Positions 9,394-58,482 are shown, counted from the first letter of the stretch. The stretch is 64,000 bases of DNA from Candidatus Heimdallarchaeum aukensis (GCA_021513695.1 CP084166.1:192001-256000), one strand, 5' to 3'. The notes: generated by a model not told the origin, from the sequence alone. Made by a program: numbers and translations.

Positions 9394-9609
9394 CAGATTC
9401 TATTTCCTAAACATCTATATAATATCTTTCTTTCAAAAAGTGTAAAAATAGAAAGAGTTGAGAATCATAATATGCAATTATCATCATAATTCAGACAGGG
9501 GTAACTTAATCATTTTCTCAACAAAAAAAAGATTTCTTCTTGTTTTTTTAATTTTCCCTTTTGTAAAACTTCTTGAACAGTAAATTTTTGATAAAATATT
9601 GAAAATTTA

Positions 9610-27152: not shown

Positions 27153-27160
27153 TTTTATAT
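27153..27160 (+). promoter_or_regulatory. TATA-like box (TTTTATAT) with purine-rich upstream BRE-like GGCGAAAG for the hydrogenase operon
   Basis: Ends 22 nt before ATG 27183 (MKTYKL...). This argues that 27183, not the track start 27159, is the real leaderless start. Confidence 0.4.
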
Positions 27161-27182
27161 GTGTTGTGTCTCACACATTAAA

Positions 27183-28229
27183 ATGAAGACCTATAAATTA
27201 ATGAAAGAAGATTTTCCACAATTTCTAAGTCTTCTGCAAGAAAAAGGGAATCTTTATGGTCCAGTAAAGTCAAAAAATCATTATTCTTTCGAAAAGATTG
27301 ATGATTTGTCTAAGTTGACTTTTGACTACACAAGGACGCTAATGGGATTAAAAAAATTTGTAACTCCTCCCAAGTATAAAGTAAAACATTTTGATAAATC
27401 AGGCTCAGAGGATGTAATTCCTGAAGATGAAACAAATATAGTAATTGGTGCTCATCCTTGTGATATCCATGCGATGAAAATTCTTGATAAGCTATTTCTA
27501 GGACAGATCAAAGACCCATATTATAAAAAAAGGAGAGAAAATTTGGTGATTGTTGGACACTCATGTTTGCCAGATGAGAACTGCCTTTGCACTTCGACAG
27601 GTACAGATATGGTGTCGGATGGATTTGATTTGTTCTTAACGGAACTACAAGATTTCTATTTAGTGTGGGTAGGTTCTAGTAAAGGTTTATTTATTATCAT
27701 GTCTTCAGAAGATTTGTTTAATGATAAAATAGAAATGTGTGACATTGCAGAATATACAAGTTGGCAAGAAAACAGACAAAATTCATTCAAGACGACTATT
27801 CCATTTCATTTAATGCCTGATATAGTCCATCTAATATATGAAGAAGATGAATTATGGGATCAATTTGGAGAAAAATGTTTAAGCTGTGGTACTTGCAGTC
27901 TTGTATGTCCAACATGTAATTGTTTCAATGTTGAAGATAAGATACTTATTCATGCCGATGAAGTAGTTAGAGAAAGAATGCTAGACAGTTGTACCCTACC
28001 CTACTACTCTGTAGTAGCAGGAGATCATGATTTTAGGCCTGACAGAACTAAGAGGTTGAAACTCTATTACACTCATAAATTAAAAGAATATATAGGAAAA
28101 TGGGGTCAACCAGCTTGTGTTGGTTGTGGACGATGTGTCACTTATTGTCCTGTTGGTATAAATGTTAAAACAGTTTCAAATGCTTTTTACGAAGCGATTC
28201 AATGTGTTCGGGAGGTAAAGAAAATATGA
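27183..28229 (+). CDS. hydB: Group 3b [NiFe]-hydrogenase (sulfhydrogenase-type) beta subunit, 4Fe-4S protein (AsrA-like)
   Basis: CLSCGTCSLVCPTCNC and CVGCGRCVTYCPVGI ferredoxin-type motifs. First gene of a beta-gamma-delta-alpha cluster with the same order as Pyrococcus hydBGDA. Confidence 0.75.
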   Translation: MKTYKLMKEDFPQFLSLLQEKGNLYGPVKSKNHYSFEKIDDLSKLTFDYTRTLMGLKKFVTPPKYKVKHFDKSGSEDVIPEDETNIVIGAHPCDIHAMKILDKLFLGQIKDPYYKKRRENLVIVGHSCLPDENCLCTSTGTDMVSDGFDLFLTELQDFYLVWVGSSKGLFIIMSSEDLFNDKIEMCDIAEYTSWQENRQNSFKTTIPFHLMPDIVHLIYEEDELWDQFGEKCLSCGTCSLVCPTCNCFNVEDKILIHADEVVRERMLDSCTLPYYSVVAGDHDFRPDRTKRLKLYYTHKLKEYIGKWGQPACVGCGRCVTYCPVGINVKTVSNAFYEAIQCVREVKKI

Positions 28230-29086
28230 TATCAGATAGAACTAAATTAGAAAATCCATATGAAGACCATTTGGCTACAATCATTGATTATCGCGATTTA
28301 ACAAGCGATACAAGATATTATAAGTTGAAATTTGTAGAACCAGAAGTACAAGAACACACTGGTGATTACAAACCAGGTCAGTTTGCGATGTTCTCCATTC
28401 CTGGTGTTGGAGAAGCTCCATTCTCTATATCTTCAACTCCGACAAGACCAGCTTTTCTAGAGTTTGGAATTAGAAAAGTGGGTTCATTTACTGATGCTTT
28501 ATTCAAGAAAAAAGAAGGAGATACTGTTTATATCCGTGGTCCTTATGGAAATGGATTTGACATGAAAAGCATGGAGGGAAAAGATATAGTTATAGTAAGT
28601 GGAGGATTAGGTGCAGTTCCATTAAGATCTGTTTTACTTTATCTAGAAGATAAAAGAGAATTATATAATAATGTATTCTTCCTAAATGGAGCTAGAACAC
28701 CTGAAGATATGCTTTTTAAAGAAGACTTCTTAGCTATGCATGCAAGAGAAATAATTGAAACACATTTAACAGTAGATAAAGATCCTACTGGAGAATGGAA
28801 ACACAATGTAGGTGTTGTAACTACACTATTCGAAAAAATTAACGGTCGAGTGGATAAAGATAATGCATATGCCTTAATCTGTGGGCCCCCAGTAATGTAT
28901 AAATTCGTTATAAAAGAATTGCTAAAAATGGAATTTTCAAAGAAAAATATACTAATGACACTAGAAAGAAGAATGAAGTGTGGTCAAGGACACTGTGGAC
29001 ATTGTGCTATTCACGGTGTTTATACTTGCTTAGATGGACCAGTGTTTAACTACTGGGATTATGAACGTATGGTGGAGTTGATTTAA
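28226..29086 (+). CDS. hydG: Hydrogenase gamma subunit, FAD/NAD(P)-binding oxidoreductase with C-terminal 2Fe-2S site
   Basis: FNR-like GQFAMFSIPGVGEAPFSIS, GGLGAVPL, and C-terminal MKCGQGHCGHCAIHGVYTCLDGPVF. GGAGGT at 28211..28216, with ATG 28226 overlapping the upstream TGA (ATGA). The track start 28202 is probably too early. Confidence 0.8.
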   Translation: MISDRTKLENPYEDHLATIIDYRDLTSDTRYYKLKFVEPEVQEHTGDYKPGQFAMFSIPGVGEAPFSISSTPTRPAFLEFGIRKVGSFTDALFKKKEGDTVYIRGPYGNGFDMKSMEGKDIVIVSGGLGAVPLRSVLLYLEDKRELYNNVFFLNGARTPEDMLFKEDFLAMHAREIIETHLTVDKDPTGEWKHNVGVVTTLFEKINGRVDKDNAYALICGPPVMYKFVIKELLKMEFSKKNILMTLERRMKCGQGHCGHCAIHGVYTCLDGPVFNYWDYERMVELI

Positions 29087-29087
29087 G

Positions 29088-29879
29088 ATGTGGACAAGTG
29101 AGCATAAACCTATTGTTGGTGTTTTTGGTTTCAGTGGTTGTGCTGGAGATCAGTTGCGATTAATTCATATGGAGGATGAACTTGTTAGTTTATTTACCAC
29201 AGCAGAGATTAAATTCTTTCATATGGCTCAATCTCATCAAGAAGTTGAGCATGTTGACATTGCTCTAGTTGAAGGTAGTATAAATACCAAAAAGCAACTT
29301 GAAGAACTGAAAGAGATACGTGAAAAATCTACTTTTCTAGTTGCATTAGGTACTTGTGCTTGTTTTGGCGGTATTCAATATTTGAACGAGAAAGATGAAG
29401 CTTTTGAAGAGCGATTTAGACATGTATACGGTTCAAATATCAAGAAAAAAGAATTTATAGTCGGAGAAGCTATCCCTCCTCAACCTTTATGCAACTTTGT
29501 AAAAGTCGATGCCATGGTTCCAGGATGTCCAATAGAAAAAGATAATCTTTTACCTATATACACTAAATTGATAAAAGGTATTAGACCTCAAAAATATCCT
29601 GCTCCCGTTTGCGTTGAATGTAAATTGGAAGGTAATGATTGTCTTCTTCTTCACGGTATTCCTTGTATAGGACCTGTGGTCTCTGCAGGTTGTGGAGCTA
29701 TATGCCCTAGTCATAATCTCCCATGTGTAGGTTGTTGGGGTCCTTATGAAGCAGCGAACTATAAATCAATGATTGACAAGCTCGAAGAGATAGGTGTAGA
29801 TAAAGAAACAGCGTTACGCAAGATCAAGTTATTTGGCGGAAGTAAGGCAGAAGAAGAATTGGAAAAGGTGATAAAATGA
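29088..29879 (+). CDS. hydD: [NiFe]-hydrogenase small (delta) subunit
   Basis: GFSGCAGDQL, GTCACFGG, PGCP and further Cys clusters (CVECK, CGAICPSHNLPCVGCWGP). 263 aa. Confidence 0.8.
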   Translation: MWTSEHKPIVGVFGFSGCAGDQLRLIHMEDELVSLFTTAEIKFFHMAQSHQEVEHVDIALVEGSINTKKQLEELKEIREKSTFLVALGTCACFGGIQYLNEKDEAFEERFRHVYGSNIKKKEFIVGEAIPPQPLCNFVKVDAMVPGCPIEKDNLLPIYTKLIKGIRPQKYPAPVCVECKLEGNDCLLLHGIPCIGPVVSAGCGAICPSHNLPCVGCWGPYEAANYKSMIDKLEEIGVDKETALRKIKLFGGSKAEEELEKVIK

Positions 29880-31159
29880 GTAAGGATATTAATGTAAAAG
29901 TTCTCTCTCGTGTTGAGGGCGATGGAGGAATAAAAGTATATGTGAAGAACAATAAAGTGGAACAAGTGCTAGTTGATATTTTTGAAGGACCACGAATGAT
30001 CGAAGCTTTAGTAAGAGGAAAAACTTTTCAGGAAAACGTTTCTCTCGTATCAAGGATTTGTGCAATTTGTACAGTTTCACATCGTTATGCTTCAATCAAA
30101 GCAATAGAGAAAGCTCTGAAGGTTGAAGTTCCTGAGAAGATACAATTGTTAAGAAAACTTCTACATTTAGCTGAATATATAGAATCTCATATTTTACATG
30201 TTTACTTCTTAGCCCTTCCTGATTTCTTTAGGAAACCTAGTGCTATCGCTTTACTTCCTACACATAAAGAAACTGTTGTAGAAGCAATAACATTGAAGAA
30301 GTACGGAACAGAATTAATGAAATTGTTAATGGGGAGAAAGATTCATGGAGAAAATCCACAAGTAGGCGGTTTTGGAAGAATACCAACTAATAAAGAACTA
30401 GATGAATTTGCTGAAAAAGCAAAAGAATATATTCCTCAACTTGCTGCATTTATCGATGTGTTAGCTTCACTTGAAATACCAGATTATTGCGAGAGAGAAA
30501 CAACATTTATGTGTTGTAATCCTCCAAACAATGAATTTGGATTTGAAGGAGACACTATTCTTATTTCTACTGGAGAGGAATATCCTGTTGAAGAATACAA
30601 GAAACTAACAAATGAGCGAGTTGTTCCTCATTCATATGCTAAAAGATCAAGATACAAAGATAAACCATTCACCGTTGGAGCACTAGCAAGACTTATTTTA
30701 ATTGGTGATAGACTAACAGGATTAGCTAAAGAAAAATTTGAGAATTACTATAATGAAAAATGGAAAGTTAATCCATTATACAATAACTTAGCTCAAGCAA
30801 TAGAAGCTCTCTGGTCATTTGAACAGATTCCAGAACTAGTAGAAAAAATAAAGTCTCTTCCTGACTCAGAAATCGTTGAAGTGAAAAACCTTAACGGAAA
30901 AGCAACTGCAGCTGTTGAAGCTCCTAGAGGTATACTCTATCACACCTATGAAATTAAGGATGGAAAGATGGTCAGCGCTGACATTATTACACCAACTGCT
31001 CAATTCCTTGATGATGTTGAAGAGTACATTAGAGTTGCAGCAGAGAAGCTAATTGCCGAGAAAAACGAAGAAACCGAGTTACATTTAGAAATGATTGCTA
31101 GAGCTTATGATCCTTGTATCTCTTGCAGTTGCCACATGGTAAAACTAATTGAAGAATAA
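29876..31159 (+). CDS. hydA: [NiFe]-hydrogenase large (alpha) subunit
   Basis: N-terminal SRICAICTVSH (RxCxxCxxxH) and C-terminal DPCISCSCH (DPCxxCxxH) Ni-Fe ligand motifs. 427 aa, the size of group 3 enzymes. ATGA overlap with hydD. Confidence 0.9.
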   Translation: MSKDINVKVLSRVEGDGGIKVYVKNNKVEQVLVDIFEGPRMIEALVRGKTFQENVSLVSRICAICTVSHRYASIKAIEKALKVEVPEKIQLLRKLLHLAEYIESHILHVYFLALPDFFRKPSAIALLPTHKETVVEAITLKKYGTELMKLLMGRKIHGENPQVGGFGRIPTNKELDEFAEKAKEYIPQLAAFIDVLASLEIPDYCERETTFMCCNPPNNEFGFEGDTILISTGEEYPVEEYKKLTNERVVPHSYAKRSRYKDKPFTVGALARLILIGDRLTGLAKEKFENYYNEKWKVNPLYNNLAQAIEALWSFEQIPELVEKIKSLPDSEIVEVKNLNGKATAAVEAPRGILYHTYEIKDGKMVSADIITPTAQFLDDVEEYIRVAAEKLIAEKNEETELHLEMIARAYDPCISCSCHMVKLIEE

Positions 31160-31170
31160 AAGTGTGGTAA

Positions 31171-31650
31171 TTGACAGAAGAAAATTCAAACCCTTTTTCT
31201 TTTTCTTGTTTTACAAAACCAGAACACACTGCTTTTCTTTGTTTTGGAAATTTAGATAGAAGTGATGACGCTATAGGTCTTCTTATAGCTCGAGATTTAA
31301 AAAACCTTTTTCCACACGTTTTTAGTGAAGAATTCGACGACCCCATTGGCGAACTACTAATGATTCTTGAAGATGAAAGTATAGAGTGCATAACTGTAAT
31401 TGATGCATGTGATCTAAAAGCTGAAAATGGAAGTGTAATTGTATCTTCTAATATTAAAGTTGCAGAAAGTCGTTTGAGTACACATACTATACCTATAAAG
31501 CAATTGATAGAACTGATCCACAACGAAGGAAAAGAATTTGTTTTTATTGGTGTTCAAGTTTATAATGTAGAATTTATGGGAGAAATGAGTGAAGAAGTAT
31601 TAAAAGCTAAAGAAAAAATCCTTTCTTGGTTTGTTAAAGAAAATCAATGA
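31171..31650 (+). CDS. Hydrogenase maturation endopeptidase (HycI/HoxW family)
   Basis: LCFGNLDRSDDAIGLLIA matches the GNxxxxDDGxG motif. Lies immediately downstream of the large subunit. TTG start. Confidence 0.7.
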   Translation: MTEENSNPFSFSCFTKPEHTAFLCFGNLDRSDDAIGLLIARDLKNLFPHVFSEEFDDPIGELLMILEDESIECITVIDACDLKAENGSVIVSSNIKVAESRLSTHTIPIKQLIELIHNEGKEFVFIGVQVYNVEFMGEMSEEVLKAKEKILSWFVKENQ

Positions 31651-35161: not shown

Positions 35162-36112
35162 TTACTTTGTTAGAAACTCAAGTTTCTCGATATTAATAAA
35201 ACCAAAACTCACTAGATTTGAAAATAAAGAGAGAAAATAGGGGAAAGAAATAATTAATTCTTCATTCTTAAAAATCTCATAAATATCGTAAATCGTATGA
35301 TTAATATTTCCACAGCATTCTTTTAGCATTTTTATGAAAAGTTTGTAAACTTTAACTGGTGTCATCGGGAAAATCTCATCAAAATTTTTTTCGAATATAT
35401 CAATATTTGTTTTGTAACTGTGTGGAATAGCGATTCTAGATTGTAATAACAAATCCAACTCTAGCAATGAAATATCATCAGGGGGATTTTCAATAATTCT
35501 ATCAATGTAAGCAGGGATAAAAGCTAGTGAAAAATTGTCTAAATAAACAAGCTGTTCTATTAAATCGTTAATTTTCTTAATCCACAGTTGAGCTATTTTA
35601 GTATTTAGTGATGAATTGATGCAGATCTTAGTTTCTATGAAGTTGAGAATAGAGTATTCAACAATTTCATTGCACTGTTTATCAGTATTATTGGAATTCT
35701 CTTCAAGATAGTATATTTCTTCTCTTAATTTGTCTATTATCTTAAGAGAGTATAGGTTTACTCCTCCGTAATCAATCGTTGGGGTTAATATTTGCTGATT
35801 ATATTTTGAAATTGATGGTATTGGAATCCCGAATTCTACATCTTGTTCTCCTATTATTGAAGGTGTTTTATCAATATCCGTACGCAAAAGAACATGAGAT
35901 CTAACTGAATTGTTAGTGTCTATAAAGAGTTTTGTAGCTCTTAATGAGCTATCTCCACACTCATGTACATCTACAAGTTCAAAGATATCTTTACCTTCGT
36001 TCAAAAAAGGTAAAATCGTCTTTGGAATGAAAATTATTCTTTGTTTTTGACATGCTGTACATAAATACTCTATTGAAACTCGAGATTCAGCTCTTATTGT
36101 CAATTTCTTCAA
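35162..36112 (-). CDS. Unknown-function protein, CxxC...HxC N-terminal module; paralogue of 48127..48990
   Basis: IEYLCTACQKQRIIFIPK...DIFELVDVHECG...LFIDTNNSVRS...GIPIPS aligns by eye with IEYQCNICLKQRIMGLPE...LMDIIDVHKCK...LHVDSDLNVRT...GLPLPS of the other gene. Both have helical C-terminal halves ending in a wHTH-like LxxLVxxGxINI. Confidence 0.6.
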   Translation of the reverse strand: MKKLTIRAESRVSIEYLCTACQKQRIIFIPKTILPFLNEGKDIFELVDVHECGDSSLRATKLFIDTNNSVRSHVLLRTDIDKTPSIIGEQDVEFGIPIPSISKYNQQILTPTIDYGGVNLYSLKIIDKLREEIYYLEENSNNTDKQCNEIVEYSILNFIETKICINSSLNTKIAQLWIKKINDLIEQLVYLDNFSLAFIPAYIDRIIENPPDDISLLELDLLLQSRIAIPHSYKTNIDIFEKNFDEIFPMTPVKVYKLFIKMLKECCGNINHTIYDIYEIFKNEELIISFPYFLSLFSNLVSFGFINIEKLEFLTK

Positions 36113-36507
36113 TAAAAAGTATACTTAATTATTTATATATTTATACATACGGTTTTTCTTTCTACTCGATGTGAAGAGAAATACTTGTTGTATGTAATTT
36201 ACAGAAAATGAGAACTTAAGTTTCAATGAACATATGACCATTTTCTAGCCAAAAAAGACCTGAAAGAAAGTCAGTGTTTTGAAAATAAAAAGATAAAAAT
36301 TTATTTGAAAACAATTTTATTAAATAGAACCTTTGTCAAACAGTTTCAAAGTAAATAGAAGAATGTTTAGTATAGTTTTCTTTTTTAGTTTAAAAGATTT
36401 AAAAAGGGAGTTTATAGTTTAAGAAAAAAACATTTATTCTTTTAATTGAATATTGTTAGAGTAGATAAGTTTTAATAGAATAAAGGTGAATTATATTAAG
36501 TAAACCA

Positions 36508-37092
36508 GTGGTACAAATGAACTCATTGAATCAAAACATCTTTAAAATCGTACTCCTTGGAGAAGGAGCTGTAGGAAAAACCTCTTTAAAACGAACTTAT
36601 ATGGGTGAAGAATTCGTAGAAGGATATAAAATGACAGTAGGTGCTGATTTCGCAGTCAAGAAACTGGAGGTAGATTTCTACAAAATAACTTTGCAGATAT
36701 GGGATCTAGCAGGGCAACCTAGGTTTGATGCGGTAAGAGAGGCATACTATAGAGGAGCTAAAGGAGCTTTACTAGTTTTTGATATCTCTAGACCAGAAAC
36801 ATACGAAATACTACCTAAATGGCTAAATGAGTTAATAAAAAACAGTGGTGGACGAAAGGTACCAATAATTCTAATTGGAAATAAATCTGACTTGCGCGAA
36901 AAACATGATCAAACTGTTCCAATTAACTATGCTGAAGATTATGCTGAAAAGCTAACAATGTGGTCTGGATATCACGTGTCTTACGTTGAAACAAGTGCAA
37001 AAACGGGAGAAAATGTAGAAAAAGCCTTTAGTGAATTAGCTCTTCAACTTGTACGTAATTTAGAAAAATTAAAAGTTGAACTAGGGATATAA
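36508..37092 (+). CDS. Rab/Ras-like small GTPase
   Basis: G1 GEGAVGKTS, switch I TVGADF, G3 WDLAGQPRF, YYRGAKGALLVFD, G4 GNKSDL, G5 ETSAKTGENV; collinear with Rab proteins. No C-terminal Cys. Start is GTG 36508 or ATG 36517. A TATA-like TTTAATAG sits at 36471..36478. Confidence 0.9.
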   Translation: MVQMNSLNQNIFKIVLLGEGAVGKTSLKRTYMGEEFVEGYKMTVGADFAVKKLEVDFYKITLQIWDLAGQPRFDAVREAYYRGAKGALLVFDISRPETYEILPKWLNELIKNSGGRKVPIILIGNKSDLREKHDQTVPINYAEDYAEKLTMWSGYHVSYVETSAKTGENVEKAFSELALQLVRNLEKLKVELGI

Positions 37093-37096
37093 AAAA

Positions 37097-37867
37097 TTAC
37101 TTTCTAAAATATGGTATTTTTACATAAGGTAATTTAATAATAAATTTGTCTTTTGAATAAACAATTATTCCACCAAGTCCTTTAACACAATGTTCGATAA
37201 AATCTTGTTCTATTGACTTTACTTTTTCTCTTTTACCTAAAGTTTCAACCAATTTAAACTTATCATAAAGATTAATTTTAAATACAAAATCCAGCATGTT
37301 CTGCTCATTACTGTATATAATTATAATCTCTGAATTTTTTTGTTGTTGCAATAAGGATTGAAACATAAGATATTCAAATAGGATATCGAGATTTTCATCT
37401 TTAACTATACATAAATCAGCAGAACCTTCAGGAAAAATAATGTCTGGAGATTGTTTAGTATAATGAGTGAGAAGATAGTGAGAAGTTAATTCTTTTATGA
37501 ACTCATGCAAGTTAACAAATGTCTTTTTGTACAATCTTCTAGATAATAACGTTATCAACTGTCTAGTAAATTTAATTTTAAAAATACTCTCTTCTAAAAG
37601 TAGAAGTGATTCATTATTCTCAAAACTTCCTTCTTTCATTGCTGATAAAATACTTAAATTATATACTGTATGGAGAAGATTTCCCATGTCATGGGTTAAA
37701 ATTTCAACTATTTTTGTTGTTCTTTGGTTTTCAGTCTCTATTTCTCGAGTCTTAATTTTTAGATTTTTACTTAACTGATAATTCCAAAGAAATAGAGATA
37801 TGATTAATATAAGTACTAAAGCGAATATAGAGACTACAGCGATTAGAAAAATTGCATAGCTATTCAA
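37097..37867 (-). CDS. Membrane-anchored histidine-kinase-like protein with degenerate ATP-binding boxes
   Basis: One N-terminal TM (FLIAVVSIFALVLILIISLFLW). H-box-like ILTHDMGNLLHTV. The C-terminal alpha/beta region has GLGG (G2-like), but I see no clear N-box Asn or DxGxG. Its stop lies 4 nt from the GTPase stop (convergent). Confidence 0.5.
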   Translation of the reverse strand: MNSYAIFLIAVVSIFALVLILIISLFLWNYQLSKNLKIKTREIETENQRTTKIVEILTHDMGNLLHTVYNLSILSAMKEGSFENNESLLLLEESIFKIKFTRQLITLLSRRLYKKTFVNLHEFIKELTSHYLLTHYTKQSPDIIFPEGSADLCIVKDENLDILFEYLMFQSLLQQQKNSEIIIIYSNEQNMLDFVFKINLYDKFKLVETLGKREKVKSIEQDFIEHCVKGLGGIIVYSKDKFIIKLPYVKIPYFRK

Positions 37868-37953
37868 GAATCTTCATTAATGTCTACATTTTATTACTTA
37901 TATTTTTTTTTAATTAGATAATGTGATGAAAAATAAAGAAAATAAAAAACGCT

Positions 37954-39330
37954 TTACCCTGAAACTGTAATATTGGCTATTGAAACAGCAGGAGCATCTA
38001 AAGGCCAAGGTGATTGTAGTACATCATCACCAATTGAAATAAAGTTTTCAAAGACTTGGTAATAGTTTCCTGCAATGCTTACAGATCTTAAAGGTAATGT
38101 ACGTTCTCCTTTTTCAATTAGAAAAGCGTTGTTTGAAGTTATACTGAAATCTCCTGTAATTACATTTGCTGTGAATAGTCCTATTGGTGTCTCTTCAATA
38201 TAGATTCCTTTATCTATTTCTGCTATCTGTTCTTCGAGGTTTTTCTTTACTGGTTCAACTACGAGTTTTCTAGGAGAAACACTTGGGATATTTTCGAAAG
38301 CAATTCCTCCCATCATACCTCCTCTGCTTGCATTAGCTGTTGTTTCTGTATTTGCAGCTTTAGCATACATTCTATCAAAGAGGAAAGTTTTCAAAATTCC
38401 TTTTTCGATGATTGAAGTTTTACCTACTGGGCTTCCTTCTCCGTCAATTGCTACTGTACTTTGACTTTCAGGTATTTGTCCGTCGTCAATTAAGTTGAAC
38501 CTTTCATCAGCAATCTTTTTACCTAGCTTGTCTCCTAAAGGATTCCTTTTTTCCACATATGCAGCTCCAGAGAGTGATTGCATAAATGGAACAGTAAGAA
38601 ATGCTGAAGAAGTATAAGGATGAAGTACAATAGGAAGTTTTTCACTCACATTAAAGGGTTTTGAACCTAAATGCTGAAAACCTTTTTCTACTGCTTTTTG
38701 ACCTAGTTCACTAATATCTTCATTCTTTCTACTAAGGACAAATTCAGATGCAGTTTTCCTATCTCCTTCTTTCATTACAACTGCATACGCTGATCCTCCA
38801 AAGACAGTAGATAAAGTAGAAACTAAACATCCTTCAGTAGTTCCAATAGCGTATCCTCTTACTACTTTTTCGACGTTTACAGATACACCTATGATTCTTT
38901 GATCATTTTTATCAACATTGTAAAGTAGTTCTGAAATTTTGTCTGCTAATTTCTCAGGAGTTAAATGTAAAACTTCATGGTCGAGAATACCATCTTTAGA
39001 TTGTTTACTTTCACTTACAAAACTTTCAAAAAGAGGATTTTTTGGGCTAGCTTTAGCAATAGCATAAGCTTTTCTTAAAGCTTCCTTGATTGATTTTTCA
39101 GAAAAACCAGTACAAGAGGAGAAACCTAGTTGTTTTCCTATTGCAACTCGAATTCCTACCCCCTGAACTACACCATCTCTACTGTCTACTTTACCTTTGT
39201 TTTCGCTTAAACTGGTCTCTAACGAATTATAAACAAAAGCTTCAGCAGACGGAATGTTAAGATCTCTAGCATATTTAATCGTAGTATCGGCAATATTCAA
39301 TATTTTTTCTCGTATTTCATTCAGTTCCAT
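37954..39330 (-). CDS. pmbA: PmbA/TldE-family protein (partner of the TldD metalloprotease)
   Basis: TldD/PmbA-family architecture, 458 aa, no HExxxH. Its ATG overlaps the tldD stop (TAATG). Confidence 0.8.
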   Translation of the reverse strand: MELNEIREKILNIADTTIKYARDLNIPSAEAFVYNSLETSLSENKGKVDSRDGVVQGVGIRVAIGKQLGFSSCTGFSEKSIKEALRKAYAIAKASPKNPLFESFVSESKQSKDGILDHEVLHLTPEKLADKISELLYNVDKNDQRIIGVSVNVEKVVRGYAIGTTEGCLVSTLSTVFGGSAYAVVMKEGDRKTASEFVLSRKNEDISELGQKAVEKGFQHLGSKPFNVSEKLPIVLHPYTSSAFLTVPFMQSLSGAAYVEKRNPLGDKLGKKIADERFNLIDDGQIPESQSTVAIDGEGSPVGKTSIIEKGILKTFLFDRMYAKAANTETTANASRGGMMGGIAFENIPSVSPRKLVVEPVKKNLEEQIAEIDKGIYIEETPIGLFTANVITGDFSITSNNAFLIEKGERTLPLRSVSIAGNYYQVFENFISIGDDVLQSPWPLDAPAVSIANITVSG

Positions 39331-40781
39331 TATTTTGCACCTCCAACTAAAACTTCATCTACAAGTAACTCTGCACCCCCAAGTCCAACAGGTAATGGAA
39401 ATTGTCCACCTTTACCACATCCACCAAAATAACCAGTCATAATGTTGAAATCTTTGGTTACTCCTTGAACTTGTTTGATTAATTCTAAGATATTTCCTGA
39501 AAGTGATGCATCTCTTACAGCATACTTTATCTCTCCATTTTCAACCCAATAACCTCTATTGCAATTGAATAGAAAGTTTCCATCTAAACCCACTTGACCA
39601 CCTGATGAAGAAACTGCATAAAAACCATCTTTAAGCTGTTCTAGAGCTTCCTCTAGACTTAAGTCTCCAGGAGCAAAGTAAGTATTTTTCATTCGTGGGA
39701 TAGGTGGATACATAAAGGTGATAGCTCTTGAATTTCCTGTTGGTTCAGCATTCATCTTTTTAGCTGTTCCTCTGTTATGTAAGTATCCTTTCAATACTCC
39801 TTTCTCTAAAAGAACAGTTTTGTCAGTTTTAATTCCTTGGTCATCATAAGGAAGCCACAGACCATTTGTTTCTCTTGGGATTGTTCCTTCATCGATAATT
39901 GTTGCCATTTCAGTACCTAAAACTTCGCCTATTTTATCAGATAATGGAGACATTCCAGTTACAACAAAATCACTTTCAGATAAATGTCCAAAGGATTCGT
40001 GAGCCAATACTCCTCCTAATCTCCATCCAATAAGGGCTTTCTGTTTTCCCGCTTTAATTGGCTTTGCTTCAGTTTGCTCTTTGCAATATTTTCCAGCATT
40101 GGTTCCAATTGTTTCAGGAAGATATTTCTCTTTTTCAAAAACTTCTAAACCAAGTGAAGAACCAATTCCATCAATACCCATAGCTCTTTTTCCTTCAATC
40201 ATGGATATAGCTTGTATTCGAAGGTCAACTATCAAAGGTTGCCAGAAGATTTCACTTTCTTCAGAATTCACAAAATATTTGTCTCCATATAGTTCTCCGT
40301 ATAACCCTGTTGTACTACTCGGTTGAATGTGATTTTCAATAGCTTTTACTCCCCGTTTTAACATGGATAATTTTTCATCAAACTCTACATTCTTAGGGTG
40401 CTTCTTTACCTCTGTAAATTGTTTATCAACAATAGGATTCTGTGTTTCAAATTCCATTTTGACTTTATTTCTAGGAGCTGTTGCTTTAGCTATCTTGACT
40501 GCATTTTCAACTGTCTGAAGAATACTTTCCCAGTTTCTCTCTGGAGTGAAAGAAAAACCAGGAGAACCATCGAAATAAGCCATTATTCCAAAACCTTTTC
40601 TTAATTTAGTAGAAGCCTCTCTAATTCTTTCGTTGAGCAGATTAACTGTCATTAAGCTCATATCATCGTATCTAGCCTCAACAAAATCTGCTCCTAAATC
40701 TAATCCTTTATTTACTGCTTTATGTAGTAAATCAAAAATATATTCGTCTATAGCCTTCATCTCGAAAACAACATTGCTCAA
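39330..40781 (-). CDS. tldD: TldD-family metalloprotease
   Basis: AHESFGHLSE (HExxxH), the Gly-rich C-terminus GGCGKGGQFPLPVGLGG, and 483 aa. Confidence 0.85.
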   Translation of the reverse strand: MSNVVFEMKAIDEYIFDLLHKAVNKGLDLGADFVEARYDDMSLMTVNLLNERIREASTKLRKGFGIMAYFDGSPGFSFTPERNWESILQTVENAVKIAKATAPRNKVKMEFETQNPIVDKQFTEVKKHPKNVEFDEKLSMLKRGVKAIENHIQPSSTTGLYGELYGDKYFVNSEESEIFWQPLIVDLRIQAISMIEGKRAMGIDGIGSSLGLEVFEKEKYLPETIGTNAGKYCKEQTEAKPIKAGKQKALIGWRLGGVLAHESFGHLSESDFVVTGMSPLSDKIGEVLGTEMATIIDEGTIPRETNGLWLPYDDQGIKTDKTVLLEKGVLKGYLHNRGTAKKMNAEPTGNSRAITFMYPPIPRMKNTYFAPGDLSLEEALEQLKDGFYAVSSSGGQVGLDGNFLFNCNRGYWVENGEIKYAVRDASLSGNILELIKQVQGVTKDFNIMTGYFGGCGKGGQFPLPVGLGGAELLVDEVLVGGAK

Positions 40782-40885: not shown

Positions 40886-42922
40886 TTACTCAAAATAAAC
40901 TTCTTTGATCTTTGTATCAATATATTCTTTTATTTCTTCATATTCCAATATATCTTCATGAGGATACTCTAATAGCTTTTTTTCAATCAAGACGGCTATT
41001 TCTTCAGTCTTTTTCTTTAGTGCATACGAAAAACGGTCTACGAATAAAGCAATTGTAAATTCACTTTTTCCTAATAAAAGCATTATATATTCAGAGTGTT
41101 CCAAAATTCTTAGCTCTCCTTTCTTTAGTTTTAGAGTTTTGCTTATATTTTTTATAGCATTAATCATTCCAACAATAAGCAACTCATCAGAATGGAAAAT
41201 ATCTCCATAAGAGTAACTATAGAAAGGAACATTTTCAACAATTAATAAGAAATGAAAAAGATGGAAGTTATTTCTACTGCTTCTAATCTCTGAAGTGAGT
41301 AATCCCTTTGTAGTGTATTGTTTTATTAGATTATCTATTTCTAAAGAAAAATCCATAGAAAAGGGAGTTTGTTCGAATTCTGAGTTTGCTTTTGCCTTCT
41401 TTAGTAGTTGATAGATTTGTCTAATATTCTCTTCTTTATAATTTAAATTATGCTTTTTACATATTATTTCCACTCTTTTTAGCAAATCTTCTGAAAGGTG
41501 AAGTTTGTTTGTATATATGTAAACTGTTGCTAATAGCAACATATAATTTACTAATTGATAAAAGGCATTAAGTTCTTTCAATAGAATAATTATTTCTTGA
41601 GAATATAACTCGATTTCCTCTAATATTTTTTGCTTATTAATTTTATTAGTCTCGATTTTAAACATTACAAGATATAATTCAATCAAGTAAAGAAGAGCAT
41701 TTAATGCTTGGGGAAAAAGGTTCAATTCTCTGGCATAATTTATTCCTTTTAGTAAATAATCTCTGGATGAATAGTAATTCATTTTATAAAATTCAAAAAT
41801 GCCTTTAGTTGTAATATAGGTAGTATAATAAGCGTTAAGTTTAGGCTCATCTAATTTAAATGTCTTTGAATATTTTTCTAAATACAATCCTGCTTTATCA
41901 AAATTGTTAGATATAGCGTATGTCTCTGCTGCTAAAGGATAAATATAATCAAGAGCAATATTGTATTGTTCACTAATTTTAATAGCCTGTTCTAGAAATT
42001 TAAGGGATTCAGGAATGTTATTTAACAGTCTGTAAGCATAGATTATTTCTGCATTTATCATGGCTATATTTCTTAATTCTTTCTTTTTTTCCATAAAAAT
42101 AAGAATGTTAAATAAGTGTTTTAAACCCTCTTTGAAAAATCCTTGTTTGAGCAAAACTACTGCATAATTTGCTTTAGCAACTATTTTTCCTCTTTCAATT
42201 TTTTCAGAACTGAATAATTTAATTGCCTCTGCATAGGCAACCTTACTTTCTATTATTGATCCAGAATAAAGAAGGCAATTTCCTTGCATATTTAGTAAAT
42301 ATGCGTGCAAGTAAACATCTGAAATATCATGTTTTAGGATTTTTTGTAATGCTTTCTCTGAAATGTAAATTCCTTTAATATATTGATGTTTCATGTAGTT
42401 GAACAAGGTTTCTGTATAAAGATACATTATTTCGTAAAATCTACAAAGTTTTTTATCTTTTTCAAATTCACTAACTTGGTCCAATATCTCTAATGCTTTA
42501 TTCAAATATTCTTCTGCTTGCTCAAGTTCGTTTATAACAGAATAGTATTCTACTACATGAAGAAAAAAATCAAAAAGATAGATAATTTGAGTATTGATTT
42601 TACCTTTATCCAGTTTTTCTATTATTTCTTCGATTTTTGGATAATCTCCTTGTATTGCTACAATACGCGAAAAAGAAGCAAAAATTTCAAAAGATTTAAA
42701 CTTCAGATAAAACTCTGATAATTTTTCTCTATCATCATAAATTAATAGAATTTTAGCAATTAAAGCTTGATAATCTGAAGGAACTGAAGAAGATAGAATT
42801 TCATCCCAATACTTTAGGATTGTATTGTAGAAATCAAAATAAGTGTTAAACAACTTTGGATGCATTTTTCCATGTAAGAAATCTTCTTCTAAAAACCTCT
42901 CATATCGCTTTATTTGCATCAT
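40886..42922 (-). CDS. TPR-repeat protein with C-terminal longin/roadblock-like domain (paralogue 1)
   Basis: 678 aa. LGN-like TPRs (LLNMQGNCLLYSGSIIESKVAYAEAIKLF ...). C-terminal about 128 aa (40889..41272): HLFHFLLIVENVPFYSYSY / DELLIVGMINAIKNISKTL / GELRILEHSEYIMLLLGKSEFTIALFVD / FSYALKKKTEEIAVLIEKKL, a beta-beta-alpha-beta-beta-beta-alpha pattern. Confidence 0.65.
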   Translation of the reverse strand: MMQIKRYERFLEEDFLHGKMHPKLFNTYFDFYNTILKYWDEILSSSVPSDYQALIAKILLIYDDREKLSEFYLKFKSFEIFASFSRIVAIQGDYPKIEEIIEKLDKGKINTQIIYLFDFFLHVVEYYSVINELEQAEEYLNKALEILDQVSEFEKDKKLCRFYEIMYLYTETLFNYMKHQYIKGIYISEKALQKILKHDISDVYLHAYLLNMQGNCLLYSGSIIESKVAYAEAIKLFSSEKIERGKIVAKANYAVVLLKQGFFKEGLKHLFNILIFMEKKKELRNIAMINAEIIYAYRLLNNIPESLKFLEQAIKISEQYNIALDYIYPLAAETYAISNNFDKAGLYLEKYSKTFKLDEPKLNAYYTTYITTKGIFEFYKMNYYSSRDYLLKGINYARELNLFPQALNALLYLIELYLVMFKIETNKINKQKILEEIELYSQEIIILLKELNAFYQLVNYMLLLATVYIYTNKLHLSEDLLKRVEIICKKHNLNYKEENIRQIYQLLKKAKANSEFEQTPFSMDFSLEIDNLIKQYTTKGLLTSEIRSSRNNFHLFHFLLIVENVPFYSYSYGDIFHSDELLIVGMINAIKNISKTLKLKKGELRILEHSEYIMLLLGKSEFTIALFVDRFSYALKKKTEEIAVLIEKKLLEYPHEDILEYEEIKEYIDTKIKEVYFE

Positions 42923-43046: not shown

Positions 43047-45095
43047 CTACTTTTCAAATATTTCAATTCTTAAATTATCTATTTCTTGTTTTATAGGAGT
43101 TAAAATCTTATTGGTAAAATAGTCAATCTGCAAAACTTCTGTTTGTTGCAATAAACTCTCAATTTTGTTAGCAAATTGAATCAAACGTTCTTTTACAGAA
43201 TAATAGAACTCATCAATGAAGAGAACAACTGAATATTTCTTTCGTTTTTCAATCATTACTATAAAATCAGTAAACTCGATAAGCTTAAAGATTCCATGTT
43301 TTTTTGTCAGAGAGTCACTGAACGATTCAATAGCTTTGAATAATCCAGATAGAAGAAGTTGTTTTTCTTCAATTTTTTCTCCTTTAAATTGATGTGAATA
43401 TAATGGTAAACCGTTAAAGTGAATAATTATTAGATTTATTAGGTGATCTTTGTTATATAAATTGAGGTTTACTTCTATGTTCCTAATTTCTGTAGAAGGT
43501 TTCTGTAATGTTTTTGTTATACTATTCAAACTGAATATTTGAAGAGCTTTATCATCTAACTTTTCAGGATTCTGTTCCATTTTTTTCAGTGTTTGCATTT
43601 CACGTAAAATTTCTTTAAGTTGAGTATTCATATTGTAGTTTTTACATAACTCTACAGTTAAAGAGTAAATATGGTTCGCAAGATCGAATTTCTCCTGAAG
43701 TGCATAAATCCTAGCTAAAAGTAATTGAAAATCTATTTTTAAGTAAATGTTGCTGTGTTTTCGTAATATTAGGGATATCTCTTCGCAAATTTCCTCTAAT
43801 TCACTTATAATTTCTTCAGAATACTGTATTTGTAATTTCTTAATCAAGTAAATTGAATGATATTTCAGTCCAGTTAGATAAAGGGGAAAATTTTTGATAC
43901 TTTTAGCTATTTCTATTCCTTTTTCCAGGAAAATAGATGCATTGTATAAATTTCCTCTTATTAATTCGTAATATCCCTTTAAAGAATAAAATGCACCATT
44001 ATGGAAACTGATGTTTTCTTTATCTTTTAAGATAATATTTTCAAATGTTTTCAAAAGTTTTTCAACAATATCAAATTTTTGAATTTGTATTGCGAACTCG
44101 ATTGATGATATTAATACTTCGTCGTCATAGACTAATCTTGTTTCTAAGAGTTTTATATTTTCTTTAAGATATTCTACTGCTTTTTCTGTTTTACCAATTT
44201 CTATTAGGCATTGCATAATCTCTCTATTTATTAAAGCTACATTTCTCAACTCATTGTTTTCAGAGAAAAATTCTTTGATTTTTATTAACTTAGGTAGAGC
44301 TTCTTTATGTTTTCCGAGTTTGATATCTAAAGAAGCTATATTTCCTTCTGTTACAATTTTTCCTCGATTATTATTCATTTCATTAAACAAATTAAATGAT
44401 TTATAGTAATTTGACTTCGATTGTTTAAGCAACCCTTTAAACATGTAAGCGTTACCTAGAGTGTTGTAAGTAACTGCTAAAAGAAATTCATCTGTTTTTT
44501 CAATATTTTCTAATATTTTTTTGGCTTCACTAAAGTAAAAAATAGCTTTATCTGACTCTCGATATCTAAAAACAGTGAAACCCAGAGTATAGAATAAATT
44601 TGCTTGAAGAAAAAGAAACAATTGACCTTCACTCTTATTTAAGAGAAGTTTGCATTGTGAAATTAGCTGAGAAGCTAATTCATTATTGAAAGTTGTAGCA
44701 AATATTTTTATTTCAGAGTTGTAGAAGTAAAATCTAGGAAAAATTGAAGATTTAGAAATAGATGCTAGATCAGTTTCTGCAATATATGTTTGTGCTTTAA
44801 TTAATCCTCTTTTTAATCGTAATATGTTGAGTAAAGGGCCTAAAGTTTCGATTGAATTATATTTTTTATAAAGAAATTCTAATTTATCATATTCTCCATA
44901 CATATTAAACAAATAACTAATTAAAAATTGAACATCAGGGGGTATGAAAATGTCTCTTATCTTTTTCCAATAATTTTGAACATTTCTGTAAAGATTAAAC
45001 TCTTTCACTTCTGTTATAGTTTTTAACTTTAGATATTTTTTTATCCAATTTTGATCATCAGAGTTTAATAACTGTAAATACCAATCCAAAACCAT
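43047..45095 (-). CDS. TPR-repeat protein with C-terminal longin/roadblock-like domain (paralogue 2)
   Basis: 682 aa. TYNTLGNAYMFKGLLKQSKSNYYKSFNLF-type TPRs. C-terminal (43050..43448): LINLIIIHFNGLPLYSHQF / KQLLLSGLFKAIESFSDSL / GIFKLIEFTDFIVMIEKRKKYSVVLFID / FYYSVKERLIQFANKIESLL. Starts 9 nt after the Grx-FTR gene stop. Confidence 0.65.
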   Translation of the reverse strand: MVLDWYLQLLNSDDQNWIKKYLKLKTITEVKEFNLYRNVQNYWKKIRDIFIPPDVQFLISYLFNMYGEYDKLEFLYKKYNSIETLGPLLNILRLKRGLIKAQTYIAETDLASISKSSIFPRFYFYNSEIKIFATTFNNELASQLISQCKLLLNKSEGQLFLFLQANLFYTLGFTVFRYRESDKAIFYFSEAKKILENIEKTDEFLLAVTYNTLGNAYMFKGLLKQSKSNYYKSFNLFNEMNNNRGKIVTEGNIASLDIKLGKHKEALPKLIKIKEFFSENNELRNVALINREIMQCLIEIGKTEKAVEYLKENIKLLETRLVYDDEVLISSIEFAIQIQKFDIVEKLLKTFENIILKDKENISFHNGAFYSLKGYYELIRGNLYNASIFLEKGIEIAKSIKNFPLYLTGLKYHSIYLIKKLQIQYSEEIISELEEICEEISLILRKHSNIYLKIDFQLLLARIYALQEKFDLANHIYSLTVELCKNYNMNTQLKEILREMQTLKKMEQNPEKLDDKALQIFSLNSITKTLQKPSTEIRNIEVNLNLYNKDHLINLIIIHFNGLPLYSHQFKGEKIEEKQLLLSGLFKAIESFSDSLTKKHGIFKLIEFTDFIVMIEKRKKYSVVLFIDEFYYSVKERLIQFANKIESLLQQTEVLQIDYFTNKILTPIKQEIDNLRIEIFEK

Positions 45096-45104
45096 ATTTT
45101 TCCC

Positions 45105-45800
45105 CTAAGTATATCTATCTTTAGGTCTCCTTTCTGGTATCATTTCAATTTCTTGATTTTTTGTGAAATCATAATCTTTCTTAAAGAATAGAGCACAATA
45201 GCATCTTCCATATTCATTGATATCTTCTTCTGCATAATCACAAGGACAACAAATATCTCTATCAAGCTGAATATTTTCGTTTGTATCTCGACAAGGACAA
45301 TTAAAATAACCTATTCTATTATAATTATCTTTTAGTCCTTGTATTAACATGTCTAAAGTTCCATCGTTATTTGGATGTAACTTCCAATTCTTCTTTTTAG
45401 CTATATTCTGAACATATTTCTTTACTTCTTCAAAAGTTTTTGACTTTTTACTTCTTCCAATACCATGAAAGAGTTTCTCCCATTTCTTTTTGTTAAATCC
45501 CATTTCATATTTTTCTCCGTCAATAACTACGAATGGAAAAGCTATAAACTCCAAATTAAAAGCATGTCTTATTTCTTTTTTGATCTCTTTTTTTTCATTA
45601 TAGTTTATTAGATCTATATCGATAAAATAGTAAGAAATTTTATTATCTTTTAGCCAATTTTTACTTTTTTTACACCATTGACATGTAGAGATAGCAAAGA
45701 GAAAAACTTCAAAATCAGTTGTTGAATCTTCAAATAGCTCTAAATTATAGTTTGGCAAACTCTTAATTTTTTTTGCTATCTTTAAGTTTAGTTTCTCCAT
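45105..45800 (-). CDS. Glutaredoxin/NrdH-like domain fused to a ferredoxin:thioredoxin reductase catalytic-subunit-like domain
   Basis: N-terminal VFLFAISTCQWCKKSKNWL (CxxC in a thioredoxin-fold context). C-terminal CPCR ... CCPC ... GRCYCALF corresponds to the FTR-c CPC / CPC / CHC cysteine pattern, with Tyr in place of His. Confidence 0.65.
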   Translation of the reverse strand: MEKLNLKIAKKIKSLPNYNLELFEDSTTDFEVFLFAISTCQWCKKSKNWLKDNKISYYFIDIDLINYNEKKEIKKEIRHAFNLEFIAFPFVVIDGEKYEMGFNKKKWEKLFHGIGRSKKSKTFEEVKKYVQNIAKKKNWKLHPNNDGTLDMLIQGLKDNYNRIGYFNCPCRDTNENIQLDRDICCPCDYAEEDINEYGRCYCALFFKKDYDFTKNQEIEMIPERRPKDRYT

Positions 45801-45875
45801 AGTATCACTTATTCGTCAATATTATACTAACTGTGTTGATTAATAATAAATGTTCTTCTACTATCAATCCAATAA

Positions 45876-46427
45876 TTATAAAGTATTTAAAAAGGCTATT
45901 TCATTGAAATTCTTTCTTGGAGGTCTATTTTTTTCAGAGTTTGCATCCTTTTCTGATAATACTTCAGTATAATTCTCATTATGTCTTCCCACTATAATTA
46001 ATGTAATAATTCTGTATTCTTGGGGAATATTCAATACATTTTTAGCTTCTTCTTCGTTAAACCCAGCTATTGGATGGGCAACAAGTCCCATTTCTGTTAA
46101 ACGTAGGATAATATTTGCTGTTGCCATTCCTGTATCAAAAAGATAGTATTCTCTTCCTTTAACTATACAATCTAAATCTGGTTTAGAGAAAACAGCAATT
46201 ACCATTGAAGCTTTTTTCGCCCAAGCATTTGCTTCAGATAAAGTAGAAAAGATTTTTTCCAGATTTTCTTTCCCGTAAACAAAGACAAATCTCCAAGGTT
46301 GTTTGTTAAAACAAGAAGGAGCTAAACTTGCTAATTCAACCAATTCCTTTATCATTTCTTCTTTTACTTCAAAGGGAAGTAATGATCTGTATGCTCTCCT
46401 TTTATTAACTATTTCATAAAAATTCAT
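45876..46427 (-). CDS. Nitroreductase-family flavoprotein
   Basis: FYEIVNKRRAYRS, PSCFNKQPWRF, and 183 aa. Its ATG directly abuts the bcp stop. Confidence 0.75.
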   Translation of the reverse strand: MNFYEIVNKRRAYRSLLPFEVKEEMIKELVELASLAPSCFNKQPWRFVFVYGKENLEKIFSTLSEANAWAKKASMVIAVFSKPDLDCIVKGREYYLFDTGMATANIILRLTEMGLVAHPIAGFNEEEAKNVLNIPQEYRIITLIIVGRHNENYTEVLSEKDANSEKNRPPRKNFNEIAFLNTL

Positions 46428-46904
46428 TTAATCACCTTTTATATTTAAAATTGTAGACAAAACATCCATAGAATGCTCTTTAACTTTTACTTTTTCCCAT
46501 ATCTTAGCAACTTTTCCTTCAGGAGAAATAAGGAAGGTCTTTCTAGCTGTACCAAAAAACTTCTTCGGTCCCATTTTCTTCTTAACCCAACAACCATAAG
46601 CTTCAATTATTTCATGGTTTTCATCGCTTAGTAAAATTACTTTTAGATCCTTTTTCTCTTCAAATTTCTTAAGTTTACTAATTGGGTCATTACTTATCCC
46701 AAAAATTATGGCATCTCTTTTCTTGAATTCTTCAATTTGTTCAGAGAATGTTTTTGCTTCAATTGTACATCCTGGAGTATTTGCTCTGGGGTAAAAATAA
46801 ACTACAACCCATTTTCCTAAATAGTCTTTTAGACAATGTTCTTTCCCATTTTGGTCCTTTAGACAAAAATCAATGGCTTTATCACCAACTTTTAAATTTG
46901 ACAT
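46428..46904 (-). CDS. bcp: Peroxiredoxin, Bcp type
   Basis: WVVVYFYPRANTPGCTIEAKTF (peroxidatic Cys motif PxxxTxxC), and 158 aa. Confidence 0.85.
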   Translation of the reverse strand: MSNLKVGDKAIDFCLKDQNGKEHCLKDYLGKWVVVYFYPRANTPGCTIEAKTFSEQIEEFKKRDAIIFGISNDPISKLKKFEEKKDLKVILLSDENHEIIEAYGCWVKKKMGPKKFFGTARKTFLISPEGKVAKIWEKVKVKEHSMDVLSTILNIKGD

Positions 46905-58365: not shown

Positions 58366-58482
58366 ACTTATCACTTATATTTCTATTATTATGTATGTTC
58401 TTGGAAATTTTTAAGATTAATTATTGATTTGTTGTTAGTGTTAAAACAAAAAAGAAATAAAAAGATAGTTTGTGCTCTTACA

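Follow-up and report, generated by a model that had tools for sequence, protein, structure and literature searches.

A tail-less Rab-like small GTPase of Candidatus Heimdallarchaeum aukensis and a nearby longin-domain family as candidate regulators

We analysed a stretch of 64,000 nucleotides (nt) from Candidatus Heimdallarchaeum aukensis (GCA_021513695.1, CP084166.1:192001-256000; GC content ~30%), hereafter the window, in which a gene on the plus strand encodes a Rab-like small GTPase without a lipidation tail. The gene is flanked by a divergent gene for a protein with a CxxC...HxC motif and by a convergent gene for a single-pass membrane protein, beyond which follow two metallopeptidase genes and two tandem genes for tetratricopeptide repeat (TPR) proteins with C-terminal domains predicted to be longins. 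No second GTPase gene, tRNA or Rfam RNA was found in the window. The GTPase gene and the elements recognised in it are as follows, with positions counted from the first letter of the window.

36430..36516, plus strand: promoter-proximal stretch, near-identical in Candidatus Heimdallarchaeum endolithica, the rest of the 395-bp spacer having diverged
36517..37092, plus strand: coding sequence of the Rab-like small GTPase, 191 amino acids (aa) from the ATG at 36517, monocistronic
36559..36582, plus strand: G1/P-loop, GEGAVGKT
36637..36651, plus strand: switch I with RabF1-like VGADF, the G2 threonine lying in KMTVGADF
36688..36738, plus strand: RabF2-like TLQIW, G3 DLAGQ with the catalytic glutamine and RabF3-like RFDAVR, switch II
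36745..36789, plus strand: RabF4 YYRGA and RabF5-like LVFDIS
36880..36891, plus strand: G4 NKSD, guanine specificity
36994..37002, plus strand: G5 SAK

The open reading frame (ORF) as a whole, 36508..37092, comprises 194 aa from a GTG and begins GTG-GTA-CAA-ATG. Translation probably starts at the ATG at 36517 rather than at the GTG at 36508, since a 99%-identical protein of 191 aa (P0001) begins there and the extra N-terminal residues are absent from an orthologue with 74% identity (P0002). A spacer of 395 bp (36113..36507) separates the gene from the divergent 316-aa ORF, and 4 nt lie between its stop codon, which ends at 37092, and that of the convergent ORF, which begins at 37097; both distances are as given in a preliminary description of this DNA. 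With this spacer upstream and the convergent gene so close downstream, the GTPase gene is transcribed alone. The stretch 36430..36516 contains A/T-rich TATA-like boxes (TTTTAATAG and TTATATTAA) and presumably represents an archaeal promoter followed by a short leader; a scan for bacterial promoters and terminators was uninformative for an archaeon.

Every G box and Rab-like string given in the preliminary description could be located in the ORF, and the five boxes follow one another in order within ~170 aa, the arrangement expected of the Ras superfamily, with G3 DLAGQ at 36703-36717. The sequence elements for Mg-GTP binding and hydrolysis are complete, namely the P-loop, the switch-I threonine, DLAGQ with its catalytic glutamine, NKSD and SAK. 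Well above what chance would produce, the Pfam profile Ras (PF00071) matches the protein with E=9.9e-49 and 165 bits over profile positions 1-160 of 162, and lower scores are obtained for Arf (58 bits) and Gtr1_RagA (33 bits). A sequence search of the PDB yielded 835 matches at E<1e-5, the top 60 being Rabs without exception: the best is a Thorarchaeota Rab (Thor-Rab, 7EZB; E=3.2e-40), and ranks 2-60 are occupied exclusively by eukaryotic Rabs (Rab11, Ypt31/32, Rab30, Rab14, Rab7, Rab12, Rab1, Rab43 and Rab2). Five motifs within or next to the switches, RabF1-F5, reportedly define the Rabs, a scheme credited to Pereira-Leal and Seabra; the GTPase carries counterparts of all five, RabF3 being matched only in part, and they compare with those of two references as follows.

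Window GTPase: VGADF / TLQIW / RFDAVR / YYRGA / LVFDIS
Rab1A: IGVDF / KLQIW / RFRTIT / YYRGA / VVYDVT
Rab7A: IGADF / TMQIW / RFQSLG / FYRGA / LVFDVT

The RabF motifs are not matched in HRAS, RHOA, ARF1 or MglA. As a set, those of the GTPase come closest to Rab7 and Rab11 and are most like the motifs of Rab7A; identity, calculated over trimmed alignment columns, is highest to Thor-Rab (~44%) and Rab11A (43%), followed by Rab5A and Rab7A (38%), HRAS and RHOA (34%), MglA (25%) and ARF1 (21%).

The protein ends in ...NLEKLKVELGI, ~10 residues past helix alpha5, and contains no cysteine at any position, so that the earlier statement that prenylation is impossible is borne out. The prenylatable cysteine motifs (CC, CxC, CCxx and CAAX) and the hypervariable tail are both absent, and the GTPase therefore cannot be lipid-anchored. 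A homologue search covering 5.8 billion proteins, in which sources were read for the 120 best matches, recovered P0001 under the NCBI name 'Rab family GTPase'; all source-named proteins among these 120 come from Asgard archaea, mostly from Heimdallarchaeaceae. A genome scan revealed, in Ca. Heimdallarchaeum endolithica PR6, an orthologue with 92% identity (locus L001) and a paralogue with 66% identity (L002), in line with the Asgard affiliation, here Heimdallarchaeaceae, to which the preliminary description had pointed.

The GTPase is a new example of the tail-less Rab-like type already known from Asgard archaea, given that a 99%-identical protein has been annotated and that Thor-Rab (7EZB), which lacks a prenylation tail, has been published. 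The latter, of which the structure has been solved, binds nucleotide and has the Rab fold, with no C-terminal cysteine or tail extension, and homologues of REP and RabGGTase were not found in BLAST database searches (Tran et al., 2024, PMC10933270). REP, GDI and RabGGTase are reported to be absent from Asgard archaea, and no small GTPase of MK-D1 has terminal cysteines (PMC10933270). The Asgard asCOGs include 94 of small GTPases and 130 of Roadblock/longin proteins (Liu et al., 10.1101/2020.10.19.343400). Since these two studies cover it, the central point of the preliminary description is established knowledge. The window GTPase and Thor-Rab of Thorarchaeota SMTZ1-45 (7EZB/7EZD/7EZE) have in common DLAGQPRF in switch II, RabF-like motifs, a truncated, cysteine-less C-terminus and an Asgard host, which places the former in the Thor-Rab type; by contrast, the window GTPase comes from another Asgard lineage, in which it belongs to a Heimdallarchaeaceae-specific paralogue pair, and carries a short insertion, LTMWSGYH, before beta6. 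With eukaryotic Rab11, Rab7 and Rab1 it shares G1-G5, the RabF1-F5-like motifs and the catalytic glutamine at 36-43% identity, but not the hypervariable tail and the prenylatable cysteines.

In a neighbour-joining (NJ) tree of 62 taxa (173 alignment columns, 100 bootstraps), the ten references of which matched the databases exactly (HRAS, RHOA, CDC42, RAN, ARF1, RAB1A, RAB5A, RAB7A, RAB11A and MglA), the window GTPase forms an orthologue group with those of L001 and L082, and the sister of this group is a Heimdall paralogue group. The cloud of Asgard sequences clusters with eukaryotic Rab, Ras, Rho and Ran, far from ARF1 and MglA. Rabs alone are the first references met in just 23 of 100 bootstraps, and the tree thus does not single out the Rabs as the sister group. 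Judged by its sequence, the protein is justifiably called 'Rab-like' on the strength of the similarity ranking and the RabF motifs, with no claim about a clade; to this extent the Rab-like assignment of the preliminary description stands, and a Rab-specific affinity does not emerge from the tree.

For a prokaryotic host, one might instead think of a prokaryote-type polarity GTPase of the MglA/Rup kind, similar to Rabs in its G boxes only, all the more so as MglA is likewise not lipidated and genes of the roadblock/longin type lie nearby in some relatives. We consider this extremely improbable. Identity of the GTPase is 25% to MglA and 43% to Rab11A, TVPGQ and VAP of MglA stand against DLAGQ and NKSD/SAK in the GTPase, the match of the latter to Pfam Ras is strong (165 bits), and MglA and ARF1 are placed on long branches outside the cluster formed by the Asgard sequences with Rab, Ras, Rho and Ran. 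Grouping with MglA, named beforehand in the preliminary description as part of the outcome that would speak against its reading, was not seen, MglA being the outgroup.

The immediate neighbours of the GTPase gene are the following.

35162..36112, minus strand: 316-aa protein in which CxxC...HxC is conserved, encoded divergently from the GTPase and probably no partner of it
37097..37867, minus strand: TM256, a membrane protein of 256 aa with one transmembrane pass and the invariant motif LTHDMGNLL, convergent with the GTPase gene
37954..39330, minus strand: PmbA metallopeptidase, conserved partner of TM256
39330..40781, minus strand: TldD metallopeptidase, conserved partner of TM256

The CxxC...HxC pattern previously noted in the divergent ORF corresponds to C18-x2-C21...H50-x-C52, and all four residues are kept in each of the five homologues found. 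Profile searches of Pfam, NCBIfam and the PDB gave no match to the CxxC protein, and a metagenome scan for it retrieved only two further loci; it is most likely a lineage-specific zinc-binding protein. TM256, the last gene of a TldD -> PmbA -> TM256 unit, has one strong N-terminal hydrophobic helix (~aa 5-27) and belongs to a family of four homologue clusters, none of which has a Pfam domain. Neither of the two flanking proteins resembles the longin profile described below, the CxxC protein having been compared with it by hhalign.

The product of the convergent gene had been described as membrane-anchored and histidine-kinase-like. The hydrophobic helix agrees with the first half of this description; for the second, the H-box-like LTHDMGNLL is the only element in favour. 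Neither HisKA nor HATPase_c matched TM256 (Pfam at E<=10, NCBIfam and PDB profile search), no N-box asparagine or DxGxG could be found by eye, and hhalign against HK853, the sequence of which was checked to be that of 2C2A, aligned LTHDMGNLL as the sole segment, to ISHELRTPL, with E=0.52 and a probability of 0.1%. Classification as a histidine kinase thus finds no statistical support and was rejected, the likeness being retained as one of motif. Across Heimdallarchaeaceae, the gene that comes next to TldD-PmbA on the same strand encodes a small LTHDMGNLL protein with a single membrane pass (37097-40781 in the window and L088:424-4170), and TM256 may serve the TldD/PmbA peptidase either as a partner in the membrane or as a substrate.

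In H. endolithica the whole 20-kb block around the GTPase gene is collinear with the window, and on a JGI contig (L081/L082), the GTPase of which is 74% identical, the genes run in the same order, CxxC(-)/GTPase(+)/TM256(-)/PmbA/TldD/TPR fragment, with identities to the window of 44% for the CxxC protein and 36% for TM256. One explanation would be that the flanks are functional partners, TM256 tethering or regulating the GTPase and the CxxC protein being co-regulated with it from the 395-bp spacer: the triad persists in three genomes despite the divergence of its outer members, the spacer is conserved at both ends between the window and L001, and in L003 a CxxC homologue lies 7 kb from a related GTPase. 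We nevertheless regard such partnership as very unlikely. The conserved triad is limited to one narrow clade (the window, L001 and L081/L082), in which the entire block is collinear. Beyond this clade TM256 has just one homologue (P0411, 31%; L088/L089), which follows TldD-PmbA on the same strand at a locus with no GTPase gene, the next gene encoding a 995-aa protein, and the CxxC homologues of L003 and L087 are divergent not from a GTPase gene but from that of a 177-aa multi-pass membrane protein, taken to be CarS-like. Moreover, TM256 is convergent with the GTPase gene and therefore not co-transcribed with it, and neither flanking protein shows likeness to known GTPase regulators. In L003 the related GTPase (57%) adjoins a peroxiredoxin-nitroreductase gene pair, the homologues of which in the window lie at 45876-46904, an arrangement that looks like decaying synteny. 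Because the pairing is confined to the narrow clade, the flanks are better viewed as decaying synteny than as partners, and the CxxC protein and TM256 are probably bystanders; the divergent/convergent pairing emphasised in the preliminary description is thus real within the clade and lost beyond it.

We therefore favour a reading in which the GTPase would act as a soluble Rab-like molecular switch of the Ras superfamily, cycling between GDP and GTP like a Rab, and would be cytosolic, reaching its targets through protein partners. To the identity of the GTPase, the switch mechanism and the bystander status of the immediate flanks, taken jointly, we assign a probability of roughly 80%, a figure that does not include the possible link to the two TPR proteins, the genes of which are as follows.

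40886..42922, minus strand: 678-aa TPR protein, its C-terminus (aa ~551-678, nt 40889-41272) predicted to be a longin domain, candidate GTPase regulator
43047..45095, minus strand: 682-aa TPR paralogue, its C-terminus (aa ~548-682, nt 43050-43454) predicted to be a longin domain, candidate GTPase regulator

In eukaryotes, the longin fold serves in the regulation of Rab GTPases. The two TPR proteins are tandem paralogues, ~25-27% identical, and the 682-aa protein is a possible heterodimer partner of the 678-aa one; both show weak TPR matches over the first ~540 aa, followed by an unannotated C-terminal domain of ~130 aa. A search with the full-length 682-aa protein gave only two near-identical matches, probably because low-complexity words swamped it, and an exhaustive HMMER search of representative proteins with both C-termini as queries collected 136 of them. 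The commonest architecture in this family combines TPRs with the domain (600-750 aa); others consist of the domain behind 6-7 predicted transmembrane helices (360-400 aa; 7TM-longin) or of the domain alone (120-160 aa), and there are fusions of an Arf/SRPRB-like GTPase with the domain (P0312) and of the domain with Roadblock/LC7 (P0362). Modelling of aa 545-682 of the 682-aa protein with AlphaFold2 from a 47-sequence alignment gave a pLDDT of 86.4 and a pTM of 0.83 (the same C-terminus modelled from a 2-sequence alignment reached a pLDDT of 47 and was unusable), and the modelled topology, beta1-beta2-alpha1-beta3-beta4-beta5-alpha2-alpha3, is that of a longin. With this model as query, the top Foldseek matches all fall in the Roadblock/longin superfamily.

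Pfam profiles point to a particular kind of longin. Fuz_longin_1 (PF19036), which corresponds to the first longin domain of FUZ/MON1/HPS1, matched 19 of 47 family sequences (best E=8.5e-7), with Intu_longin_1 matching 7/47 and Robl_LC7 4/47, and the family profile retrieved the first longin domain (LD1) of MON1 (E=0.015) and TRAPPC1 from the PDB, with E~0.015-0.02. According to the structural model and these matches, the C-termini of both TPR proteins are predicted to be a previously unrecognised longin domain of the Mon1/Fuzzy type, and the wider list of candidates in the preliminary description did hold the right genes, 40886..42922 and 43047..45095. Ahead of beta2 a G-[LI]-P is conserved, which is similar to G-K-P in the MON1 alignment and differs from the adjacent 'GP' motif proposed for longins of GTPase-activating proteins (GAPs) (PMC12290439). 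A 672-aa gene product beside the nitroreductase in L003 was considered as a diverged TPR-longin protein and ruled out by hhalign. We found no description in the literature consulted of this longin family fused or adjacent to small GTPases, nor of 7TM-longin proteins.

Across a set of 85 loci, each centred on a relative of the window GTPase, the family profile matched 14, and seven of the loci, namely L002, L084, L007, L008, L023, L040 and L063, have a longin gene no more than 1.5 kb away from the Rab-like GTPase at their centre. At the paralogue loci L002 and L084 this is a 7TM-longin gene following the GTPase gene (with a ThiS-like gene annotated in L084), and in L023 it is a TPR-longin gene. 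In L040, from Helarchaeota LW55_61, a 253-aa longin protein (9157-9915) is encoded 86 bp upstream of the Rab-like GTPase on the same strand; it matches Fuz_longin_1, of the MON1/FUZ type (E=2e-5), and weakly Intu_longin_1, of the CCZ1/INTU type (E=5e-3), and these matches in tandem give it the appearance of two Mon1-Ccz1-like longins fused into one protein that shares an operon with this GTPase. L037 (16602-17516) contains a fusion of a longin with a Roc/Arf/Ras-type GTPase. A TPR-longin gene is found 3-5 kb from the paralogous Heimdall GTPases of L002, L084 and L091, and the TPR-longin block of the window is syntenic in L001 and L081.

The 7TM-longin genes (L002:11035-12147, L084:10954-12159, L083:6839-7993 and L063:11783-12904; further members P0297, P0320, P0330 and P0344) stand just downstream of a paralogous Rab-like GTPase gene, from which they are separated by the ThiS-like (ubiquitin-fold) gene in L084 and by genes for a TPP-enzyme and a ThiS-like protein plus two more in L083; their products could be membrane receptors for tail-less Rab-like GTPases. 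Divergent from the paralogous GTPase gene of L084 is a gene (L084:8440-9840) whose product of 466 aa matches presenilin (PF01080) weakly. Another Heimdall lineage of Rab-like GTPases (57-59% identity), which includes Ca. H. aukensis, has a Roadblock/LC7 gene within 3 kb (L090:6960-7487 and L092:12275-12796), along with two unannotated genes for proteins of ~250-280 aa, an arrangement common to both genomes.

On the model we propose, the longin domains of the two TPR paralogues, encoded 3.8-8 kb downstream of the GTPase gene, would pair to form a GTPase-binding platform acting as an exchange factor, GAP or scaffold, and the TPR arms would recruit other proteins. The TPR-longin pair is our candidate for the most plausible regulators encoded in the window; from the genomic context, its functional link to the GTPase is a tentative possibility, against which several observations weigh. 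The TPR-longin genes lie on the strand opposite to the GTPase gene and three genes apart from it, in a co-directional run with genes for peroxiredoxin, nitroreductase, a ferredoxin-thioredoxin reductase/glutaredoxin protein and TldD/PmbA, and they could serve this redox and TldD/PmbA run instead. Asgard genomes are dense in small GTPases and in longin/roadblock genes, so that proximity may arise by chance: the seven longin genes within 1.5 kb of a GTPase compare with ~3-5 expected from local density by our own estimate over the 85 loci, an enrichment that is marginal, comprises several orthologous loci and for which we claim no significance. Taken singly, the two longin domains of the window give no Pfam match, and the bootstraps of the NJ tree lend weak support to a Rab-specific placement of the GTPase.

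A more specific proposal, in which the TPR-longin heterodimer is the exchange factor or targeting platform of the GTPase and a prokaryotic forerunner of Mon1-Ccz1, BLOC-3 and CPLANE, with 7TM-longin proteins as the membrane anchor, appears unlikely. Whereas Mon1-Ccz1/BLOC-3/CPLANE are tri-longins, and compared also with Bet5/Trs23 of TRAPP, the window proteins, as putative exchange factors, have a single longin behind ~540 aa of TPR and are encoded on the strand opposite to the GTPase gene. The likeness to Rab7A, evident from the pairs VGADF/IGADF, TLQIW/TMQIW and LVFDIS/LVFDVT, together with top PDB matches that are all Rabs and nearby longins of the MON1/FUZ/HPS1 LD1 type, might even suggest a true eukaryotic-type, Rab7-like Rab that forms with these longins an archaeal module of the Rab7/Mon1-Ccz1 type. 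We find this quite unlikely, because eukaryotic Rab, Ras, Rho and Ran nest together among the Asgard sequences in the NJ tree, with Rabs alone nearest in less than a quarter of the bootstraps, because Rab11A is nearer by identity than Rab7A, because two defining Rab features, the prenylatable C-terminus and the hypervariable tail, are missing, and because the TPR-longin proteins have one longin domain each, versus three.

The soluble Rab-like switch that we favour, with the TPR-longin pair as its candidate regulator, also invites comparison with known prokaryotic systems. Like MglA and its Roadblock GAP MglB, the window has a small GTPase encoded near a gene of the roadblock/longin superfamily in a prokaryote, but the two do not form an operon and the GTPase is not MglA-like. 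Asgard GTPase genes are in general found outside operons with Roadblock/longin genes (PMC10933270). An Asgard operon has been described that joins a LAMTOR1-like Roadblock protein, a Rab-like GTPase and a DENN protein (Liu et al., 10.1101/2020.10.19.343400). The window differs from the latter in having no such operon, and neither Robl_LC7 nor DENN domains were detected in it.

Several other genes of the window deserve mention. Directly upstream of the TPR-longin genes, 45105-46904 on the minus strand encodes the peroxiredoxin (AhpC/TSA), the nitroreductase and a protein in which glutaredoxin is fused to the catalytic chain of ferredoxin-thioredoxin reductase. At 58429-59424 lies a gene for a Rce1-like type II CAAX prenyl endopeptidase of the CPBP family (Pfam E=2.4e-15); CPBP-type CAAX proteases are common in prokaryotes, and the GTPase, having no cysteine, is not a CAAX substrate. 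In a 994-aa protein (6409-9393), a RING finger at the N-terminus (zf-RING_2, E=5e-6) is found together with a ResIII/DEAD helicase core, a pairing that is unusual and eukaryote-flavoured. Two genes may encode transcription factors: that at 1112-1690, whose small product has a zinc finger of the C2H2 type scoring below the Pfam cutoff, and that at 14868-15833, for a protein of 321 aa bearing a TFIIB-type zinc ribbon. A cytoplasmic [NiFe]-hydrogenase cluster (27159-31650) consists of genes for a 4Fe-4S protein, an FAD/NAD subunit, the small subunit, the large subunit and the maturation protease HycI; a partial HycI gene beside PALP/PadR also opens L081.

The GTPase itself adds little to what is known, tail-less Rab-like GTPases being an established hallmark of Asgard archaea, one of them with a crystal structure. 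Genome layout does not match the small GTPases of these archaea to their regulators, a gap that has been pointed out before (Tran et al., 2024, PMC10933270). It is here that the predicted Mon1/Fuzzy-type longins, invisible to Pfam, are of interest, as they recur beside Rab-like GTPases in the window, at the paralogous locus and in several other Asgard lineages. Occurring in one protein with TPR arrays, with 6-7 transmembrane helices, or with roadblock or GTPase domains, they offer testable pairs of GTPase and regulator, and the context of the family suggests a possible route by which a Rab without a lipid might reach the membrane.

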